Shown here piece by piece: positions 1,084 to 5,084 of a stretch of 5,088 nt of DNA. Source of the DNA: a virus. Its lineage: Duplodnaviria; Heunggongvirae; Uroviricota; Caudoviricetes. The translations under genes and the position numbers were made by a program. Location of the stretch: the IMG/VR virus record IMGVR_UViG_2681813320_000010, positions 1-5,088 of that record; one strand, written 5' to 3'. Position 1 is the first letter of the stretch, and the number at the start of each line of letters is the position of its first letter. The notes under the pieces were generated by a model. That model was not told the DNA's origin. It did no database searches and saw nothing but the letters and a program-made list of their open reading frames with translations.

Positions 1084-1268
1084 CGCCACTCTCCGAAAAT
1101 ACCGAGTTTAAGAAGGGCAATTCTGGAGAGTATGGAATTGTCATTCAGCAGGTAGGGTTCATATTTTCTCATATTGATTGCATCCTCGGTGAAATCCCTG
1201 TTACTGAGCAGAACACCAATATTAAAGCACCCGTCAGACGTATTAACGTTTGGTAGTGACGTTTCCAT
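1080..1268 (-). CDS. Small hypothetical protein (62 aa), translationally coupled to the downstream small membrane protein gene
   Basis: ATG at 1268-1266 with GAGGA Shine-Dalgarno 7 nt upstream. The longer track ORF 1080..1373 starts at GTG with no ribosome-binding site and runs through the inverted repeat, so the shorter start is preferred. Stop TGA overlaps the next ATG (ATGA). Confidence 0.4.
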   Translation of the reverse strand: METSLPNVNTSDGCFNIGVLLSNRDFTEDAINMRKYEPYLLNDNSILSRIALLKLGIFGEWR

Positions 1269-1285
1269 TATCGCGTCCTCAACAA

Positions 1286-1433
1286 TGAATTTTGTGATGC
1301 GGTGCCTGGTGCCTCCAGGTGACGTTAACCAGTTAACAATTAACGCCGGATACAGAGAATCCACCCATAACACTGTTTTTGGTTTTAACTGTTCCGCGTG
1401 CGCTCAGCCGCATTCACCACATCACAAAATTCA
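1286..1433. repeat. 19-bp imperfect inverted repeat pair bracketing a 110-bp spacer
   Basis: 1286-1304 TGAATTTTGTGATGCGGTG; 1415-1433 CACCACATCACAAAATTCA, the reverse complement with 1 mismatch (18/19). The spacer 1305-1414 holds a GGTGCCT tandem direct repeat (1301-1314), a CCTGG/CCAGG palindrome and three closely spaced TTAAC motifs (1325-1344). The left arm ends 18 nt upstream of the ATG at 1268. Confidence 0.6.
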
Positions 1434-1827
1434 CTTTAAAAAGGGCGGCAGAGCAGTCACGGAGTAAAACTGATACCGCCAAAAGTCACCAGAAAATTGA
1501 TAACAGAGGGCGTTGCAGCGGAGTTGTCACTTAAGCGTATGGTCAACCTGACAACCCGGTGTCCTCAACGGGGGAAGGAATAACCCCGCCATACTTACCG
1601 CCGCGCCATTTCGCGGAGTGCCACAACCGGAAGCGCACGGTCGAACTAAATTTAACGACACCGTACAGAGAGACCAATTTCGCCGTGCGCTTTCGCGTTA
1701 TGCCCTGACTTTTCAGGGACATATCCTTTCAGTAAACTGTCAGTGCCGGATGTTCACCCGTGTCCGGCGCACGCACTCCACCTGACCCGTGGAGAACTCC
1801 TTAATTACCAACCCTCAGGAGGGTGAA
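1434..1827. other. ORF-poor, GC-richer structured intergenic region between the plus-strand 92-aa gene and the minus-strand small-gene operon
   Basis: No ORF of 60 codons or more in any frame across about 1468-1788. By hand count about 57% GC over 1541-1700, against AT-rich flanking small genes. Hairpins: CCGCG-ccattt-CGCGG (about 1600-1616), CCCTGA-cttt-TCAGGG (1703-1718), GCCGGA-12nt-TCCGGC (about 1744-1767). GTGCGC/GCGCAC recurs four times. Weak candidate plus-strand promoter: -35 TTTTCA at 1710-1715, -10 TAAACT at 1733-1738. Confidence 0.4.
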
Positions 1828-2106
1828 ATGGATAAAAAGCAAATTGAGGCCCTGCAATCTATTATTGAAAAACAAGATGAAGCTATCAGGATTCTTTCAT
1901 ATCGCACTGATATGATACTAAATATGCTTTCTGCATTAACGGCTGCGCTTGGTGGTACAAAAACAAACGTATACCGCGAAGTTGTTATTCAACAGATAGA
2001 TAAATTTGAAAAAACCATACCAGGTATTAATGCTCATCTTGCAGAACAAGAGAAAGACCATGCTCTTATGGCAATTTCTTCAGTAGCTCTCCCGAAAGTT
2101 GAGTAG
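1828..2106 (+). CDS. Hypothetical 92-aa coiled-coil-like protein, transcribed opposite to the surrounding early-left genes
   Basis: ATG at 1828 preceded by strong AGGAGGG Shine-Dalgarno (1817-1823); the track ORF begins upstream at GTG 1789 with no ribosome-binding site. Product MDKKQIEALQSIIEKQDEAIRILSYRTDMILNMLSALTAALGG... is balanced and heptad-like. Stop TAG at 2104-2106. The 3-prime 41 nt overlap the convergent 133-aa gene. Confidence 0.5.
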   Translation: MDKKQIEALQSIIEKQDEAIRILSYRTDMILNMLSALTAALGGTKTNVYREVVIQQIDKFEKTIPGINAHLAEQEKDHALMAISSVALPKVE

Positions 2107-2467
2107 TTTTAATTGTTGTTTTGAAATAATCACTGCTTTCACATTTGAGTGATTTCATGGCAATCCAAATGCGGGCCTCTGTGCCTGCATTTGGTTCCAG
2201 TTGCTGTAGACGTTTTGCGTCTTCCAAAAGTAAGGCGATAATGTGTTTCAGCTTCTCATCATTTGCTTGATTCTTGTTTTCAGGCGAATTCTGTCCGCCG
2301 AATAGGCGCTTCTCTTCATACAGACCTATAAAGGCACGACGCACGTTACCGGATATAGTATCGATGGTTTCCTTTTCTACAGTACTCAGGTCAAGAGTCG
2401 CCAGTTGAGAGCGAACCACATTCGCTGCCATTTCCTGGAATGGCATTGGTAAATCTTTAAATTCCAT
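2066..2467 (-). CDS. Hypothetical early-left protein (133 aa)
   Basis: ATG at 2467-2465 with GAGG Shine-Dalgarno 6 nt upstream, 22 nt after the stop of the upstream 72-aa gene (operon-like). Protein-like composition (MEFKDLPMPFQEMAANVVRSQLATLDLSTVEKETIDTISG...). No family recognised. The last 13 codons overlap the plus-strand gene, so the true 3-prime end is uncertain. Confidence 0.5.
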   Translation of the reverse strand: MEFKDLPMPFQEMAANVVRSQLATLDLSTVEKETIDTISGNVRRAFIGLYEEKRLFGGQNSPENKNQANDEKLKHIIALLLEDAKRLQQLEPNAGTEARIWIAMKSLKCESSDYFKTTIKTTQLSGELLKKLP

Positions 2468-2489
2468 TATTAGCCTCGTTGGTTAGCTA

Positions 2490-2708
2490 TTAACGTGGGT
2501 ATGTAACCATTCTGGCAATGCTTAATGCCGCTGCTTTTTCCAGCCTGGTGATATCCTGCTCCAGAGCGGACAGATTTTCAGCCTGCTTAGTCCTGGCTTC
2601 ATTGGCCCATTTCAGATCCTGCGCTGCATTAATTTTCTGGCGCATCCACTCATAAAGTTCATCATCGGTATAGTCTGGCGCGATGATGACGGGTTCTCGT
2701 TTCTGCAT
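2490..2708 (-). CDS. Hypothetical small early-left protein (72 aa), predicted helical/coiled-coil
   Basis: ATG at 2708-2706 with GAGGAA Shine-Dalgarno 6 nt upstream; stop TAA at 2492-2490. Product MQKREPVIIAPDYTDDELYEWMRQKINAAQDLKWANEARTKQAENLSALEQDITRLEKAAALSIARMVTYPR is charged and helix-prone. No family recognised. Confidence 0.5.
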   Translation of the reverse strand: MQKREPVIIAPDYTDDELYEWMRQKINAAQDLKWANEARTKQAENLSALEQDITRLEKAAALSIARMVTYPR

Positions 2709-2737
2709 ACTGATTCCTCGCGGTGCTGTTTCGCTTA

Positions 2738-2866
2738 TCAGCCGTTAGATTTTGCCGAACTGGAAAGCGCCTGTTTAAATTCGTTGAAGCTGAGAGCTTC
2801 TTCGCCTTCGGCAAGACCTTCGAAGTATTCTTCGTAAGCCTTTTCCATGATTGTGTCGAAATCCAT
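2738..2866 (-). CDS. Small acidic hypothetical protein (42 aa), absent from the ORF track because it is short
   Basis: Manual translation from ATG 2866-2864 to TGA 2740-2738: MDFDTIMEKAYEEYFEGLAEGEEALSFNEFKQALSSSAKSNG. AGGTGA Shine-Dalgarno-like sequence upstream; ATG lies 1 nt after the stop of the upstream 51-aa ORF. The overlapping track ORFs 2662..2871 (-) and 2723..2920 (+) have basic or antisense-like low-complexity products and are considered shadows. Resembles the small Rac-prophage ydaF/ydaG-type genes by size and position, from memory only. Confidence 0.4.
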   Translation of the reverse strand: MDFDTIMEKAYEEYFEGLAEGEEALSFNEFKQALSSSAKSNG

Positions 2867-2867
2867 A

Positions 2868-3023
2868 TCACTCACCTGAGTTTCTTTCCAGCCAGCGACG
2901 GGCACCATTTTCGGTTTTAAACGTTTTGCTTTTGGTATACGTCATCGCGGTGAACGTACCGTCCTGGTTGGGGAACACGCCACATACCAGAGATTCGCTG
3001 TTGCCAAGATCGATAGTATCCAT
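2868..3023 (-). CDS. Small hypothetical protein (51 aa); first gene after the candidate OL/pL region (alternative upstream start at 3104 would give 78 aa)
   Basis: ATG at 3023-3021 with GAGGT Shine-Dalgarno 4 nt upstream: MDTIDLGNSESLVCGVFPNQDGTFTAMTYTKSKTFKTENGARRWLERNSGE; stop TGA 2870-2868. The track ORF extends to ATG 3104 with an N-rich hydrophobic extension of doubtful coding character. Start choice is unresolved. Confidence 0.45.
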   Translation of the reverse strand: MDTIDLGNSESLVCGVFPNQDGTFTAMTYTKSKTFKTENGARRWLERNSGE

Positions 3024-3199
3024 GCTGACCTCATTTCCCCTTAACGCCGGGGTAGCGGAACAAAAACCTGCTGCATAGTTATTAAAGTTGAACCCTGCCG
3101 TCATGTTCTTACGCCTCGGGCTGGCTACTTAACCCCTGACCACTGCCGGGTAACTCGAAGTATTGCCTGGCGTTCTGTGGGGCGGGGTGGGTTGATGAA

Positions 3200-3250
3200 T
3201 GAACAATACCACTACTATTTAATTATGTAAATAGCAGTGCTATTATCGTG
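3200..3250 (-). promoter_or_regulatory. Candidate OL/pL-like operator-promoter region for the early-left operon
   Basis: Overlapping palindromes: CTATTTA-ATTATG-TAAATAG (3215-3234) and AAATAG-CAGTG-CTATTA (3229-3245), plus a degenerate copy CAATAC-CACTA-CTATTT (3204-3220); same half-site family as the OR region. Candidate minus-strand promoter: -35 TTTACA (3229-3224), 17-nt spacer, -10 TATTGT (3206-3201). Lies between the terminator of the repressor operon and the first early-left gene. Confidence 0.4.
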
Positions 3251-3252
3251 GC

Positions 3253-3278
3253 AAGAAAAAAACCACCCGAAGGTGGTT
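3253..3278 (-). terminator. Rho-independent terminator of the repressor-antitoxin-toxin operon
   Basis: On the minus strand: 7-bp stem AACCACC/GGTGGTT with a UUCG tetraloop (plus 3261-3278), followed by a U-run (plus 3256-3260 AAAAA; transcript GGUGGUUUUUUUCUU). Begins 15 nt downstream of the toxin stop codon (3295-3293). Confidence 0.7.
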
Positions 3279-3292
3279 GTTGACAGGAAGGA

Positions 3293-3583
3293 TTAACAGG
3301 TTTTGTTTGGATACTGTCTTCGTGAGTGAACTACATTTACGATCTCGATGTTAGATGCTGTTACTCGGTAAAGTATTATGTAGTTAGGATGAGTCACTAT
3401 CTCACGAAGACTTGGAACTCTTTCGCTCGGTGGGTACAGATAAGGGTGTTCAGTAAGTGACAAAACTGATGTTTCAATGCGTATTTTTAGTCTACGTGCA
3501 GCGGGAGGGTTTTCCTTAGCAATATAGGCTACGATCTGACGTAAATCATCACGTGCAGAAGGTAGCCATAAAATGGGCAGCAT
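3293..3583 (-). CDS. parE: Type II toxin, ParE/RelE superfamily (ParE-like), 96 aa
   Basis: Product MLPILWLPSARDDLRQIVAYIAKENPPAARRLKIRIETSVLSLTEHPYLYPPSERVPSLREIVTHPNYIILYRVTASNIEIVNVVHSRRQYP shows the ParE pattern: W-x-x-x-A-x-x-DL-x-x-I-x-x-YIA, an R-x-L/I-E region, R-E/L-V/I then YRV then I-x-I-x-x-V-x-H, and a terminal RQ-x-P. ATG overlaps the upstream antitoxin stop by 1 nt (TAATG). Family assignment is from memory of ParE sequences; parE is a family-level symbol only. Confidence 0.8.
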   Translation of the reverse strand: MLPILWLPSARDDLRQIVAYIAKENPPAARRLKIRIETSVLSLTEHPYLYPPSERVPSLREIVTHPNYIILYRVTASNIEIVNVVHSRRQYPNKTC

Positions 3584-3774
3584 TACTCACTCCTGTTCGT
3601 TGCAGCTAATTGAGCAATAAGGTTTTCCATTTCAGCCATTACTTCGTCATGTGGAATTGCAGGACGGGGATCTGAGAGGCTTGCTGCCACTTTGGTTCGC
3701 AACCATTCGTTATAGCTGTTTTCTTGTTCGACTGTTTCAAATTCAGAAATTATCGGGGAAAGGGCTGTACTCAT
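3583..3774 (-). CDS. paaA: Small antitoxin (63 aa) paired with the ParE-like toxin; resembles PaaA-type antitoxins of three-component ParE systems
   Basis: ATG at 3774-3772 with GGAGG Shine-Dalgarno 7 nt upstream, 17 nt after the repressor stop; stop overlaps the toxin start. Product MSTALSPIISEFETVEQENSYNEWLRTKVAASLSDPRPAIPHDEVMAEMENLIAQLAATNRSE is small, acidic and likely disordered, typical of type II antitoxins. The PaaA-like call rests on gene order and recollection, not a search; paaA is a family-level symbol only. Confidence 0.7.
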   Translation of the reverse strand: MSTALSPIISEFETVEQENSYNEWLRTKVAASLSDPRPAIPHDEVMAEMENLIAQLAATNRSE

Positions 3775-3791: not shown

Positions 3792-4292
3792 TTAGGCGCG
3801 ACGACCCTTTTGCGCAGCTAGCCATCGCGCAACGATTTCTTCAATTGATTCTTTTTTCTCCTTCATTTCCTTAAGCATTTTCTCTTTATCTTCTTTGGGG
3901 AAAGCCCTGAACGTCTGGAGCAAATCCCGCTCCATGGGGTCTATATTAAACGGAAGTTCGTTTTCCGATTGTTCCATATCTGCAGATATAGTGACAACAT
4001 TGTCCTCCCCAGATTCTTGGGGATACATCCTTACAATTTGTAACAACTCGGCCATATCTGGTCTGATTGACTCGGGAGGAACTTGCAGCAACCCTGCGAA
4101 CTTGATAACAGCCTCAAGATTTAAAGGTGTCTGACCATTTAGATAATGGCTTACAGCTCCCTGTGTCGAAAATCCCAGAATTTCTGCCGCACGCTCTTGG
4201 GTTAACCCTAGTTGATTTTTTTTCGCCGTCCAGATTTCTTTCAGTCTCTGGGCGGCTTGCAGGTCGATCTCTGACAGGGATTTTCTTTTCAT
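3792..4292 (-). CDS. paaR: HTH (XRE/Cro-CI family) transcriptional repressor, 166 aa; CI analogue and first gene of the repressor-antitoxin-toxin operon
   Basis: N-terminal helix-turn-helix signature LTQERAAEILGFSTQGAVSHYLNGQTP. C-terminal region is Lys/Glu-rich with no recognisable LexA/S24-type autocleavage motif. Divergent from the Cro-like gene across an operator-rich 107-bp region. AAGG ribosome-binding site almost abuts the ATG, so the leader is poor. paaR is assigned by operon architecture, moderately confident. Confidence 0.8.
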   Translation of the reverse strand: MKRKSLSEIDLQAAQRLKEIWTAKKNQLGLTQERAAEILGFSTQGAVSHYLNGQTPLNLEAVIKFAGLLQVPPESIRPDMAELLQIVRMYPQESGEDNVVTISADMEQSENELPFNIDPMERDLLQTFRAFPKEDKEKMLKEMKEKKESIEEIVARWLAAQKGRRA

Positions 4293-4399: not shown

Positions 4400-4675
4400 A
4401 TGAATCTTGGAGAATATTTGCATCATTCCGGTATAACTCAGAAGCATTTTGCTGAAATTGTTGGGGTAACCCAAGGGATGGTAAGCCATGTCATTACCGG
4501 ACGGGCGAAACTTACGGGGAAAAAAATTTTACGCTGGTGCGAAGCAACAGGCTGGATAGTAACTCCGCACGAGATTGATGGCAGTACTTATCCCAACCCA
4601 ACCGACGGCTTACCTGTCGAGTATCAGGCTAACACACAACCAGAGGCGGGGGTGATTCATGAAAATCAAGCATGA
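4400..4675 (+). CDS. ydaS: Cro-like HTH DNA-binding protein, YdaS-type (91 aa)
   Basis: ATG at 4400 with GAGGTG Shine-Dalgarno 4 nt upstream. HTH signature ITQKHFAEIVGVTQGMVSHVITG. Divergent from the repressor and followed by an overlapping YdaT-like gene, the arrangement of the Rac-type ydaS-ydaT pair. Assignment from motif and synteny. Confidence 0.75.
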   Translation: MNLGEYLHHSGITQKHFAEIVGVTQGMVSHVITGRAKLTGKKILRWCEATGWIVTPHEIDGSTYPNPTDGLPVEYQANTQPEAGVIHENQA

Positions 4676-5084
4676 ACACATCCGCATGGCAATGAATGCC
4701 TGGGCGCATCCGGACGGCGAAAAAGTACCGGCTGCGAAAATTACCAAAGCGTATTTCGAGCTGGGAATGACGTTCCCGGAACTGTATGACGACAGCCATC
4801 CGGAAGCCCTGGCCCGTAATACCCAGAAAATTTTCCGTTGGCTGGATAAAGACACCCCTGATGCTGTTGAAAAAATGCAGGCTCTGTTACCGGCGATCGA
4901 AAAGGCGATGCCGCCTTTGCTGGTGGCCCGTATGCGCAGCCACAGTTCTGAATATTACCGTGAGATCGTCGAACGGAGGGATCGGCTGGTGAAGGATGTC
5001 GATGATTTTGTTGCGTCAGCGGTTGTTTTGTATGACCAGATGAATCGCGGCGGCCCGGCAGGGAATGCTGTGGTGATGCACTAA
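4659..5084 (+). CDS. ydaT: YdaT-like protein (141 aa), CII analogue of Rac-type immunity regions
   Basis: Begins MKIKHEHI, which I recall as the N-terminus of Rac-prophage YdaT. Overlaps the 3-prime end of the Cro-like gene by 17 nt in another frame. G-rich ribosome-binding site (GGGGGTG) upstream. Stop TAA 5082-5084. Assignment from recollection and synteny. Confidence 0.75.
   Translation: MKIKHEHIRMAMNAWAHPDGEKVPAAKITKAYFELGMTFPELYDDSHPEALARNTQKIFRWLDKDTPDAVEKMQALLPAIEKAMPPLLVARMRSHSSEYYREIVERRDRLVKDVDDFVASAVVLYDQMNRGGPAGNAVVMH

Follow-up and report, generated by a model that had tools for sequence, protein, structure and literature searches.

Substitution patterns show ydfB, an acidic mini-protein gene in the early operon of a Qin/CP-933P-like prophage, to be under purifying selection, and its phage homologs suggest a possible host-directed role

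Genes and features of the locus

The stretch of viral DNA analyzed here, referred to below as the window, is 5,088 nt long. The main features are listed by coordinate; all those listed lie on the minus strand.

892-1089, minus: YdfD-like ORF, phrog_1092
1080-1268, minus: DicB-like ORF, from the ORF list and a profile search
1443..1494, minus: DicF sRNA, Rfam RF00039, 75.8 bits (gathering score 48), E=5e-16; downstream in the same operon
2490..2708, minus: ydfC coding sequence, 72 aa plus stop; phrog_1744, E=2.9e-39
2738..2866, minus: ydfB coding sequence, 42 aa plus stop; acidic mini-protein, predicted helix-loop-helix, phrog_2061
2867..2880, minus: ydfA/ydfB junction, with the Shine-Dalgarno sequence AGGTGA within the end of ydfA, the ydfA stop, one spacer base and the ydfB ATG
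2868..3023, minus: ydfA coding sequence, 51 aa plus stop, DUF1391; Shine-Dalgarno GAGG at 3032-3029
3024..3104, minus: 5' leader, non-coding; the 27-codon in-frame extension from the ATG at 3104 is not conserved
3037..3061, minus: conserved leader motif GTTCCGCYACCC(C)RGCGTTAA(N)GGG(G), immediately 5' of the Shine-Dalgarno sequence of the first operon gene
3203..3239, minus: PL-type promoter from a consensus scan, with -35 TTTACA (3231-3226), a 17-nt spacer and a TG-extended -10 TATTGT (3208-3203)
3254..3278, minus: hairpin resembling an intrinsic terminator, 7-bp stem followed by the T-run TTTTTCTTGC

Read directly from the sequence, ydfB runs from ATG at 2866-2864 to TGA at 2740-2738 and encodes the 42-residue protein MDFDTIMEKAYEEYFEGLAEGEEALSFNEFKQALSSSAKSNG, in which 10 residues are acidic and 3 basic (net charge -7, pI 4.05). 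Its Shine-Dalgarno sequence, AGGTGA, ends 5 nt before the ATG, and the ydfA stop codon TGA (2870-2868) is separated from that ATG by the single base T2867. An earlier note on this DNA had described an acidic 42-aa ORF with a ribosome-binding site, starting 1 nt past the stop of a 51-aa ORF, and every part of that description holds. In the mechanical ORF list this frame opens at an ATG farther upstream and appears as a 56-aa ORF (2738-2908); the list also has three ORFs that overlap ydfB: 2662-2871 (minus), 2723-2920 (plus) and 2851-3078 (plus). The junction sequence TCAGGTGAGTGATATGGAT was the sole variant among 78 sources that matched the search pattern. Because the ydfA stop, one nucleotide and the ydfB start follow each other in this way, translation of ydfB is probably coupled to that of ydfA.

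The same note called the ORF unannotated, which is true of the six-frame track only. RefSeq/PGAP carries the matching DNA as "ydfB: protein YdfB" (K-12 b1572), and by sequence the 42-codon ORF corresponds to this annotated prophage gene: its product is identical to E. coli K-12 YdfB at 41 of 42 positions (98%), the only change being N28S. In the literature up to 2024, YdfB is named within the dicBF operon as a small uncharacterized protein.

Gene order also agrees with this assignment. The genes follow the order ydfA-ydfB-ydfC-dicF-dicB(-ydfD) on the minus strand from 3023 to 892, and ydfC, with a Shine-Dalgarno sequence of GAGGAA, begins 29 nt past ydfB. Spacing in the window is the same as in K-12 Qin (b1571-b1573), with ydfA of 156 nt, a gap of 1, ydfB of 129, a gap of 29 and ydfC of 219, and in both DicF and then DicB lie downstream of ydfC. 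The two differ in three respects: the leader upstream of about position 3061 is not homologous, an insert of about 1 kb with two extra ORFs lies between ydfC and dicF in the window, and the immunity region is PaaR2-PaaA2-ParE2 (as in CP-933P) rather than DicA. No DicA/DicC module is found directly upstream in the window. The immunity region is instead of the CP-933P type: an HTH repressor is accompanied by the antitoxin PaaA2 (PF21217, E=1e-21) and the toxin ParE (PF05016), and Cro-like and YdaT genes run divergently from these three. We conclude that ydfB is very probably the second gene of an early-left operon, ydfA-ydfB-ydfC-dicF-dicB, in a Qin/CP-933P-like lambdoid prophage, and is expressed from a PL-type promoter. 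Of 5426 complete E. coli genomes, 4390 have a match to the DNA of the ydfA-ydfB-ydfC region, and multiple copies are common.

YdfA is 94-96% identical to its K-12 counterpart and belongs to the YdfA/YdaF family (DUF1391), from which it does not differ notably. It matches Pfam PF07151 with E=8.8e-28 and 96.2 bits (cut-off 27.3), profile positions 1-48 aligning with residues 2-49 of the 51-aa form, and its pN/pS is 0.17. The start of this gene had been flagged as ambiguous between 3023 and 3104. The ambiguity is real, as public databases carry YdfA in both 50-51-aa and 77-86-aa forms, and it settles on the conserved ATG at 3023, which gives the 51-aa form that PGAP also calls. A 78-aa protein from 3104 can be rejected: many homologous loci, including K-12, share DNA only from about 3061, Qin-type loci have no in-frame upstream ATG, other leader types meet a stop within 5-12 codons, and the equivalent ATG in a Citrobacter locus (L092) meets one after 5 codons. 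An AF2 model of YdfA has three beta strands and a helix (pLDDT 72). Foldseek returned no significant structural neighbor for this model in the PDB, and single-sequence searches of the PDB returned nothing significant for YdfA or YdfC.

Leader motif and transcription signals

The leader motif is present in 95 of 99 sources, where it precedes ydfA, or ydfB directly if ydfA is absent. It may form two short overlapping helices, 3057-3054/3048-3045 and 3052-3049/3040-3037. The first shows the pair variants U.G, U-A and C-G, and in the second C-G is replaced by G-C (Citrobacter) or U.G; these variants, which were read by eye and represent few independent events, are suggestive only, and gaps in the MAFFT alignment of the leader fall out of register with the proposed second helix. 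A large structured leader RNA was considered and rejected, since the 186-nt leader folds no more stably than shuffled sequence (z = +1.09); this leaves the short local helices as the sole candidate structure. Rfam gave no match in the leader.

The PL-type promoter is overlapped by an inverted repeat that resembles an operator and has arms of 12 bp (3239-3210). CP-933P has a promoter, PL933P, with OL operators under the control of PaaR2 and YdaS (PMC8630535), and we infer that the promoter at 3231-3203 is PL933P. ydfB is the second ORF after it. Upstream of the promoter, the terminator-like hairpin is predicted to close the repressor-antitoxin-toxin transcript.

Coding status of ydfB

The window contains 51 ORFs of at least 30 aa in the mechanical list, and for this reason the size of the ydfB ORF has no significance on its own. 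What lifts it above a chance ORF is conservation. Full-length ydfB is kept in 89 of 94 fetched loci, and pN/pS in its frame is 0.315, whereas the three overlapping ORFs score 1.01, 0.97 and 1.76 in theirs. Apart from the ydfB frame, a low ratio is seen only in an antisense frame that shares wobble positions with ydfB and is interrupted by a stop codon. Against orthologs from Salmonella, Cronobacter and Citrobacter, dN/dS of ydfB ranges from 0.07 to 0.31. The excess of synonymous changes is significant by Fisher's test for Cronobacter (p = 1.9e-6), locus L094 (p = 6e-6), Salmonella (p = 1.5e-3) and Citrobacter (p = 0.03).

The comparison of frame conservation and synonymous bias proposed in the earlier note thus came out clearly positive for the ydfB frame, and its view of the longer overlapping ORFs as shadows is borne out by ratios of about 1 to 1.8 in their frames vs. 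0.32 for ydfB. These substitution patterns show that ydfB is a real protein-coding gene under purifying selection. That ydfB is a chance ORF, or that the true gene is one of the overlapping ORFs in another frame, is refuted by the substitution analysis and has next to no probability left: the gene is short and the window rich in ORFs, but selection is specific to its frame, nearly all loci keep it intact, it is conserved in other genera without its neighbors, and the other frames either reach pN/pS of about 1 or above or hold stops.

The YdfB family and SP6 gene 0.6

YdfB matches phrog_2061 over its full length (residues 1-42, E=2e-27). Proteins of this family have 29-45 residues and share the core YEEYF-x-x-L-x-E-G-E-E-A-L-S-F-x-E-F. 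In two family alignments the core columns Y11, E12, Y14, F15, L18, G21, E23, S26, F27, E29 and F30 are invariant or nearly so, and all of these residues are present in the window protein. The family comprises 431 clusters across Enterobacterales, and an exhaustive search gave 77 representatives. A 29-aa member occurs in Klebsiella.

Prophages of Salmonella, Citrobacter, Cronobacter and Pantoea that lack ydfA carry a ydfB homolog as the first ORF downstream of the repressor gene, and a family ORF occupies this first position in loci L088, L090, L092, L094, L095 and L097. Occurrence of the gene without ydfA and ydfC shows it to be an autonomous module.

Homologs are also found outside prophages. 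About 60 phage records match the family, most of them SP6/K1E-like, and SP6 gene 0.6 aligns with the family at an hhalign probability of 98.6% (E=7.5e-16). This link came first from matches in BFVD, which were to uncharacterized family members only, and was then confirmed directly. A tblastn search of a phage collection with the 42-aa protein returned only 5 records, all of temperate phages, probably due to the low-complexity filter and the short query. In the virulent SP6/K1E-like phages the homologs sit in the early region, which is at the left genome end, upstream of an Ocr-like gene in SP6 and K1E and upstream of the phage RNA polymerase in SP6. SP6 gene 0.6, the K1E/K1-5-like homologs and YdfB have in common the core motif YEAYFNSLDEGEEVLSFADFVEA, the PHROG and an early-region position. 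The virulent-phage proteins are shorter (29-33 aa), lacking the N-terminal MDFDTI and the C-terminal tail SSSAKSNG of YdfB, and in SP6 and K1E the gene overlaps the next one by ATGA, which ydfB does not. The SP6 type also belongs to virulent Autographiviridae, whereas YdfB belongs to temperate lambdoid prophages.

Predicted structure

The AF2 model of YdfB consists of a helix (3-17), a loop (18-26) and a second helix (27-39), with pLDDT of 85.6. Foldseek found no PDB structure with E below 4 and no EF-hand for this model, although the method is insensitive at 42 residues, and a PDB sequence search with the family profile gave nothing significant. Pfam and NCBIfam have no family for YdfB or YdfC, and PADLOC gave no match for YdfA, YdfB, YdfC, the two inserted ORFs or the repressor. 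Pfam, NCBIfam, PADLOC and the PDB, searched by sequence and by fold, therefore offered no functional lead for YdfB.

Possible functions

Small early proteins that bind host proteins are familiar from lambda (cIII, Kil, Gam and Ral) and T7 (Ocr, Gp0.4 and Gp2). YdfB shares with these host-directed proteins its early position, its small size and, in some cases, its acidity; neither sequence nor structure shows it to be homologous to any of them. Our best inference is that YdfB is made early, is not toxic and binds some target in the host. Judging from the anatomy of the locus, the repressor-controlled PL-type promoter at 3231-3203 would transcribe ydfB, which would be silent in the lysogen and made at once upon derepression. 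The product, an acidic, aromatic-rich helix-loop-helix that we assume to be probably a dimer, would then, at an early stage of the lytic program, bind and neutralize an enterobacterial protein that is conserved and non-essential, in the service of host takeover or anti-defense and not of the prophage's own switch. For this proposal, a probably dimeric helix-loop-helix that neutralizes a conserved non-essential host protein early in the lytic program, we would give a probability of roughly 0.35 to 0.4.

That temperate prophages and virulent SP6-like phages alike carry the family as an early gene fits some early role directed at the host. When the Qin operon was induced without dicF and dicB, ydfABC were still transcribed, and growth and morphology were normal (PMC5069750), which weakly suggests that YdfB is non-toxic. 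In this one relevant experiment YdfB is thus unlike Kil, Gp0.4 and Gp2. Counting against the proposed host binder is the only phenotype on record, which it does not predict: overexpression of YdfB was found in a screen for tolerance to H2O2 and HOCl (PMC8228696).

DNA mimicry, raised in the earlier note, is a special case of host binding. An acidic surface that imitates phosphates could block, for example, a restriction enzyme, a nuclease or a nucleoid protein, and a net charge of -7 over 42 aa, early expression and the proximity of the homolog to an Ocr-like anti-restriction gene in SP6 and K1E all suit such a role. However, no sequence or fold in the PDB likens YdfB to Ocr, ArdA, Gam or any solved mimic, and its 29-aa core is governed by the invariant aromatic and hydrophobic residues Y11, Y14, F15, L18, F27 and F30 rather than by a patterned acidic array, and we consider mimicry unlikely.

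Slightly less likely still is that YdfB is a Ca2+/Mg2+-binding EF-hand-like mini-protein, paired as a dimer in the manner of a two-EF-hand domain. The stretch G-x-x-A-L-S-F-x-E-F of YdfB resembles D-G-x-I-S-F-x-E-F in the second half of the loop and the exit helix of EF-hands such as those of calmodulin, CHP1 and calcineurin B. EF-hand proteins make up 13 of 16 profile matches in the PDB, including the five best, in constant register (E from 0.024 to 1.6); CHP1/p22 (E=0.024), calcineurin B and MICU2 are among the matches. Two or three of 21 family members weakly match Pfam EF-hand models (best E=0.0033), an EF-hand repeat protein (P0146) turns up in the deep search, and the AF2 model has a helix, a 9-residue loop and a helix, with Glu29 at loop position 12. 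The loop itself, LAEGEEALSFNE, nevertheless fits the canonical 12-residue pattern (Asp at position 1, Asp/Asn at 3, Asp/Ser/Asn at 5, Gly at 6, a hydrophobic residue at 8, Glu at 12) at positions 8 and 12 only. A Leu, invariant or nearly so in the family, stands at position 1 in place of Asp, and a Glu at position 6 in place of Gly; positions 3 and 5 are variable among family members. Furthermore, hhalign against calmodulin gives a probability of 4.9%, the window protein matches no Pfam family at E up to 10, and the Foldseek search described above contains no EF-hand structure. With profile scores short of threshold and a non-canonical loop, we treat this as a resemblance and reject EF-hand membership.

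A role in the lysis-lysogeny switch of the prophage, for example as a cIII-like protease inhibitor that shields the CII analog YdaT, or as an anti-repressor, is suggested by the position of ydfB in the PL operon adjoining the immunity region, as for lambda cIII, and by prophage loci that always pair it with Cro/YdaS plus YdaT-type modules. This appears quite improbable: YdfB has no similarity to cIII, and at the Pantoea locus (L095) the repressor is of another type (S24 peptidase) and YdaT is absent. SP6/K1E-like phages, which are strictly virulent and lack a lysogeny switch, also carry clear homologs, and this occurrence argues against a role confined to the switch. Least credible among these roles is that ydfB is only a translated spacer, providing coupling or anti-polarity for ydfC, DicF and dicB with a peptide of immaterial sequence; the 1-nt spacing to ydfA and, in SP6 and K1E, the ATGA shared with the following gene would suit a spacer, but its residues are conserved across genera and phage types, some of them invariantly (dN/dS 0.07-0.31), and the downstream neighbors are wholly different between contexts.

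Significance of ydfB and its homologs

As a discovery ydfB matters little; it has been annotated since the K-12 genome and PGAP names it routinely. It is, however, one of the uncharacterized "y-ome" genes (PMC11551758), and it lies at the very start of an operon whose DicF, DicB and YdfD all strongly affect the host. What is added here is the clear purifying selection, the autonomy of ydfB from ydfA and ydfC, and the homologs in the early region of virulent SP6/K1E-like phages; the last of these narrows the plausible functions to an early, host-directed one. The gene is a reasonable candidate for anti-defense or host-takeover screens.

A broader and more doubtful extension of the host-binding proposal is that YdfB and gp0.6 represent a pan-enterobacterial early "mini-effector" of phages, a helix-loop-helix of about 30 residues common to temperate lambdoid prophages and virulent SP6/K1E-like phages, that neutralizes one conserved, non-essential host factor (e.g., a defense or nuclease component). 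In prophages, the conserved hairpin or pseudoknot of 25-40 nt in the leader, close before the Shine-Dalgarno sequence, would set its expression. Were it true, identifying the target would explain what a y-ome gene does, one whose operon has DNA matches in about 80% of complete E. coli genomes.

Identity of the Acidic ORF

The acidic 42-aa ORF, which the earlier note regarded as unannotated, can be identified as ydfB, a gene already known and annotated. Coordinates relevant to its identification are as follows.

ydfB: 2738-2866, minus strand; ATG at 2866-2864, 42 codons, stop TGA at 2740-2738
Overlapping other-frame ORF (mechanical ORF list): 2662-2871, minus strand
Overlapping other-frame ORF (mechanical ORF list): 2723-2920, plus strand
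Overlapping other-frame ORF (mechanical ORF list): 2851-3078, plus strand
DicF: 1443-1494, minus strand; Rfam, 75.8 bits

Read from the sequence, the ydfA/ydfB junction (minus strand) is AAC TCA GGT GAG TGA T ATG GAT TTC, with the stop TGA of the 51-aa ORF ydfA at 2870-2868, T2867 as the one spacer base before the ydfB ATG, and a Shine-Dalgarno sequence (AGGTGA) ending 5 nt 5' of that ATG. This agrees with the original description of an acidic ORF with a ribosome-binding site that starts 1 nt past the upstream stop. The product, MDFDTIMEKAYEEYFEGLAEGEEALSFNEFKQALSSSAKSNG, carries a net charge of -7 (10 acidic, 3 basic residues; pI 4.05). The same frame appears in the mechanical ORF list as a 56-aa ORF, beginning at an ATG farther upstream.

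Positions 2400-3300 were matched by megablast in 4390 of 5426 complete E. coli genomes. The closest record carries the 42-aa ORF as WP_000344935.1, “protein YdfB,” and the 51-aa ORF as “DUF1391 family protein.” In the Qin prophage of K-12 MG1655, ydfA (b1571, 156 nt), a 1-nt gap, ydfB (b1572, 129 nt), a 29-nt gap, and ydfC (b1573, 219 nt) are followed by dicF, dicB, and ydfD. Gene lengths and spacing of ydfA-ydfB-ydfC in the window are identical to these, the two YdfB proteins differ by one residue (N28S), and DicB-like and then YdfD-like ORFs lie 3' of DicF; the supposedly unannotated ORF is therefore ydfB.

Evidence for Coding

Homologous loci (n = 94) were collected from species-representative genomes, IMG/VR viral contigs, and assemblies with divergent orthologs, and full-length ydfB is kept in 89 of them. 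Among 15 distinct nucleotide alleles, codon positions 1, 2, and 3 have 11, 8, and 21 variable sites, and pooled pN/pS is 0.315, in contrast to 1.01 (2662-2871), 0.97 (2723-2920), and 1.76 (2851-3078) for the overlapping ORFs, which bears out their earlier description as shadows. The antisense frame whose wobble positions coincide with those of ydfB also has a low ratio, as would be expected, and is interrupted by a stop codon. Comparison with divergent orthologs gives dN/dS values of 0.16 (Salmonella), 0.07 (Cronobacter), 0.08 (locus L094), and 0.31 (Citrobacter), with a synonymous excess in all four comparisons (Fisher p 0.03 to 1.9e-6). Given the intact loci and these ratios, ydfB withstands the check proposed at the outset, namely frame conservation and substitution bias: its frame is conserved and is favoured over every alternative. 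This comparative evidence establishes ydfB as a conserved protein-coding gene.

A few alleles are frameshifted or truncated (protein clusters P0049, P0058, and P0060; loci L006 and L007), and at the C-terminus they cross over to the reading frame of shadow ORF 2662-2871. With 1-2 member sequences per cluster, such alleles are rare and would fit either sequencing errors or decay in cryptic prophages.

Start of the Upstream Gene ydfA

Across residues 2-49, the 51-aa form of ydfA matches the Pfam model DUF1391 (E=8.8e-28). The start of this gene had been noted as ambiguous (3023 or 3104), and since public databases carry ydfA both as 50-51 aa and as 77-86 aa (current PGAP, 51 aa), the ambiguity is a known annotation inconsistency. 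Homologous loci favour 3023, and the ATG at 3104, which would add 27 codons, was rejected on three results from them. In about half of the loci, including K-12, the DNA in common with the window begins at ~3061 and the 3104 region is absent. In Qin-type leaders no in-frame ATG lies farther upstream, and in the other leader types a stop closes the frame within 5-12 codons. In Citrobacter locus L092, where the longer leader is present, translation from the ATG equivalent to 3104 would end at a stop 5 codons on. The ATG at 3023 is universal, with GAGG 5 nt upstream.

Immunity Region, Promoter, and Operon

HTH repressor, 166 aa: 3792-4292, minus strand, upstream of ydfA
PaaA2-family antitoxin: 3583-3774, minus strand, upstream of ydfA
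ParE toxin: 3293-3583, minus strand, upstream of ydfA
Cro-like and YdaT (CII analogue) genes: 4400-5084, plus strand, divergent from the repressor unit
Terminator-like hairpin with T-run: 3278-3261 (hairpin), minus strand, 3' of parE
Inverted repeat with 12-bp arms: 3239-3210, minus strand, overlapping the promoter
Sigma-70-like promoter: 3231-3203, minus strand; TTTACA, 17 nt, TG-extended TATTGT
Insertion ORF, 133 aa: 2066-2467, minus strand; phrog_1363
Insertion ORF, 105/92 aa: 1789-2106, plus strand; phrog_18692

Repressor, antitoxin, and toxin form one leftward unit, in which the toxin-antitoxin pair separates the repressor from the PL operon. This is a CP-933P-type immunity region; in that prophage PaaR2, YdaS, and YdaT are analogues of CI, Cro, and CII, and the PL933P promoter, with its OL operators, is PaaR2-repressed (PMC8630535). 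We infer that the candidate promoter at 3231-3203 is the PL equivalent and drives ydfA-ydfB-ydfC-...-dicF-dicB; 3203-3278 is probably the prophage OL/PL region, and homology breakpoints with other prophages flank it at ~3233 and ~3194. Transcription of the Qin operon starts from dicBp, upstream of ydfA, and is DicA-repressed (PMC10448788).

The window differs from K-12 Qin in a ~1 kb insertion between ydfC and dicF. Its two ORFs are convergent with a 41-nt overlap, and neither has a Pfam, NCBIfam, or PADLOC match. A below-threshold Rfam match to STnc100 (1236-1445, minus strand; 38.4 bits vs. a gathering score of 47, E=6e-6) runs across the spacer between DicF and dicB and into the beginning of the DicB-like ORF.

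The Wider Family in Prophages

In Salmonella, Cronobacter, Citrobacter, and a Logan contig, ydfB orthologs (69-83% identical) are found where ydfA, and mostly also ydfC, is missing. There the repressor gene is followed after 190-300 nt by ydfB as the first ORF, and then by KilR or DicB, Gam, and RecE-type exonuclease genes. A Pantoea prophage has a 39-aa member after an S24-type CI repressor. The ydfB gene is therefore a module in its own right, tied to neither ydfA nor ydfC. Both ydfA and ydfB start ATGGAT behind a similar ribosome-binding context, which hints at clean modular gain or loss of ydfA.

An exhaustive profile search gave 77 family representatives and a second, word-indexed search 431 clusters, from Klebsiella, Raoultella, Enterobacter, Pantoea, and others, all named “hypothetical.” Many members have just 29 aa, M[ED]KAYEEYF[ENDS]SLAEGEEALSFAEF[VK]EALS; invariant or nearly invariant positions are Y11, E12, Y14, F15, L18, G21, E23, S26, E29, and F30.

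In some E. coli loci without ydfA, a window-type leader is joined straight to ydfB, and gene callers give 68-aa “fusion” proteins, MTAGFNFNYAAGFCSATPALRGNEVNMDFDTIM... (P0003, P0012, P0016, etc.; loci L088-L094). A 2.5-kb contig binned as Collinsella (Actinomycetota) (L002, JAIIUG010000151.1, “MAG: Collinsella sp.”) carries ydfA-ydfB-ydfC DNA 98% identical to the window and most likely represents E. coli prophage DNA assigned to the wrong bin.

Homologs in Virulent Phages

Foldseek against BFVD matched tiny uncharacterised proteins of virulent phages. The SP6 gene 0.6 product, MYDELYEAYFNSLDEGEEVLSFADFVEARGGAE, clearly belongs to the family by pairwise comparison (BLASTP, 28 residues at 50% identity) and by profile comparison (hhalign, E=7.5e-16, probability 98.6%), and falls in the same PHROG, phrog_2061. 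About 60 phage records have a match, mostly SP6/K1E-like Autographiviridae, in which the ORF, often unannotated, is placed 0.9-1 kb in from the left end of the genome, 5' of an Ocr-like gene and the phage RNA polymerase.

K1E family member, MNYEEMYEVYFDSLDEGEEALSYAEFVEALS: 965-1060 of L102 (AM084415); unannotated, as in some related genomes

The K1E stop overlaps the gp1 start (ATGA), as does that of SP6 gene 0.6 with gene 1.

Leader Upstream of the Operon

A conserved motif, GTTCCGCYACCC(C)RGCGTTAA(N)GGG(G), lies at 3037-3061 (minus strand) and in other loci (L088, L089, L090, L092-L094, L097, L098, L005, and K-12, L101), just 5' of the Shine-Dalgarno sequence of the operon's first gene (ydfA, or ydfB where there is no ydfA). 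It marks the left edge of a module common to prophages with differing immunity regions. The motif could form two short overlapping, pseudoknot-like helices; the variants seen at paired positions (U.G/U-A/C-G, and in Citrobacter C-G to G-C) would allow this pairing, but stem from few independent events. It has no Rfam match.

A longer leader is conserved between 3105-3195 (minus strand) and Citrobacter L092, ~140-50 nt 5' of the ydfB-like ATG 3001. Shuffled sequence folds at least as well (z = +1.09), and the leader has only a weak boxA-like CAACTTTAATAA at 3090-3079. Perfect rrn-type boxA sequences, TGCTCTTTAACAA, occur in SP6 (L099, ~926-938), ~60 nt 5' of gene 0.6, and in the Pantoea prophage (L095, ~3309-3321), ~200 nt 5' of the ydfB-like gene; in both, the family ORF is the first after the Nus-factor (boxA) site.

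Predicted Fold

The AlphaFold2 model (46-sequence alignment, mean pLDDT 85.6) depicts YdfB as an acidic, aromatic-rich helix-loop-helix, with helices at 3-17 and 27-39 and a 9-residue loop at 18-26; no solved structure was alike in fold. EF-hand proteins made up 13 of the 16 matches of the family profile to PDB sequences, including the five best (marginal E, 0.024-1.6), with GeEALSFaEFveal always on the second half of the EF loop and the exit helix. In EF register the loop, LAEGEEALSFNE, shares Glu at position 12 and Leu at position 8, but has Leu instead of Asp at position 1 and Glu instead of Gly at position 6, and positions 3 and 5 are variable. An hhalign comparison with calmodulin gave the same register at 4.9% probability, and YdfB of the window matched no Pfam EF-hand model. 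EF-hand membership was rejected because of the marginal E-values, deviant loop positions, low calmodulin probability, and lack of a Pfam match, leaving a resemblance only.

Possible Function

YdfA, YdfB, and YdfC have been described as “small proteins of unknown function” (PMC5069750), all three genes are on the 2024 y-ome list (PMC11551758), and DicF, DicB, and YdfD are the only characterised members of the Qin dicBF operon (PMC10448788). Gene position marks ydfB as early, whether in a repressor-controlled operon of prophages, under the candidate promoter, or in the early region of virulent phages. When the operon was induced with dicF and dicB deleted, growth and morphology were wild-type (PMC5069750), and this absence of toxicity argues against YdfB inhibiting an essential host machine.

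The most economical reading, to which we tentatively give a probability of about 0.35-0.4, is that YdfB would act early as a host-directed binder, probably dimeric, of a non-essential, conserved enterobacterial protein, in host takeover or anti-defence. DNA mimicry, a special case of such binding that the earlier note had raised for acidic phage proteins, seems improbable, and nothing found points to it specifically. A role confined to the lysogeny switch is unlikely because the family is present in strictly virulent phages. The gene itself is real but already known. An ASKA overexpression screen lists ydfB among H2O2 and HOCl tolerance candidates (PMC8228696).
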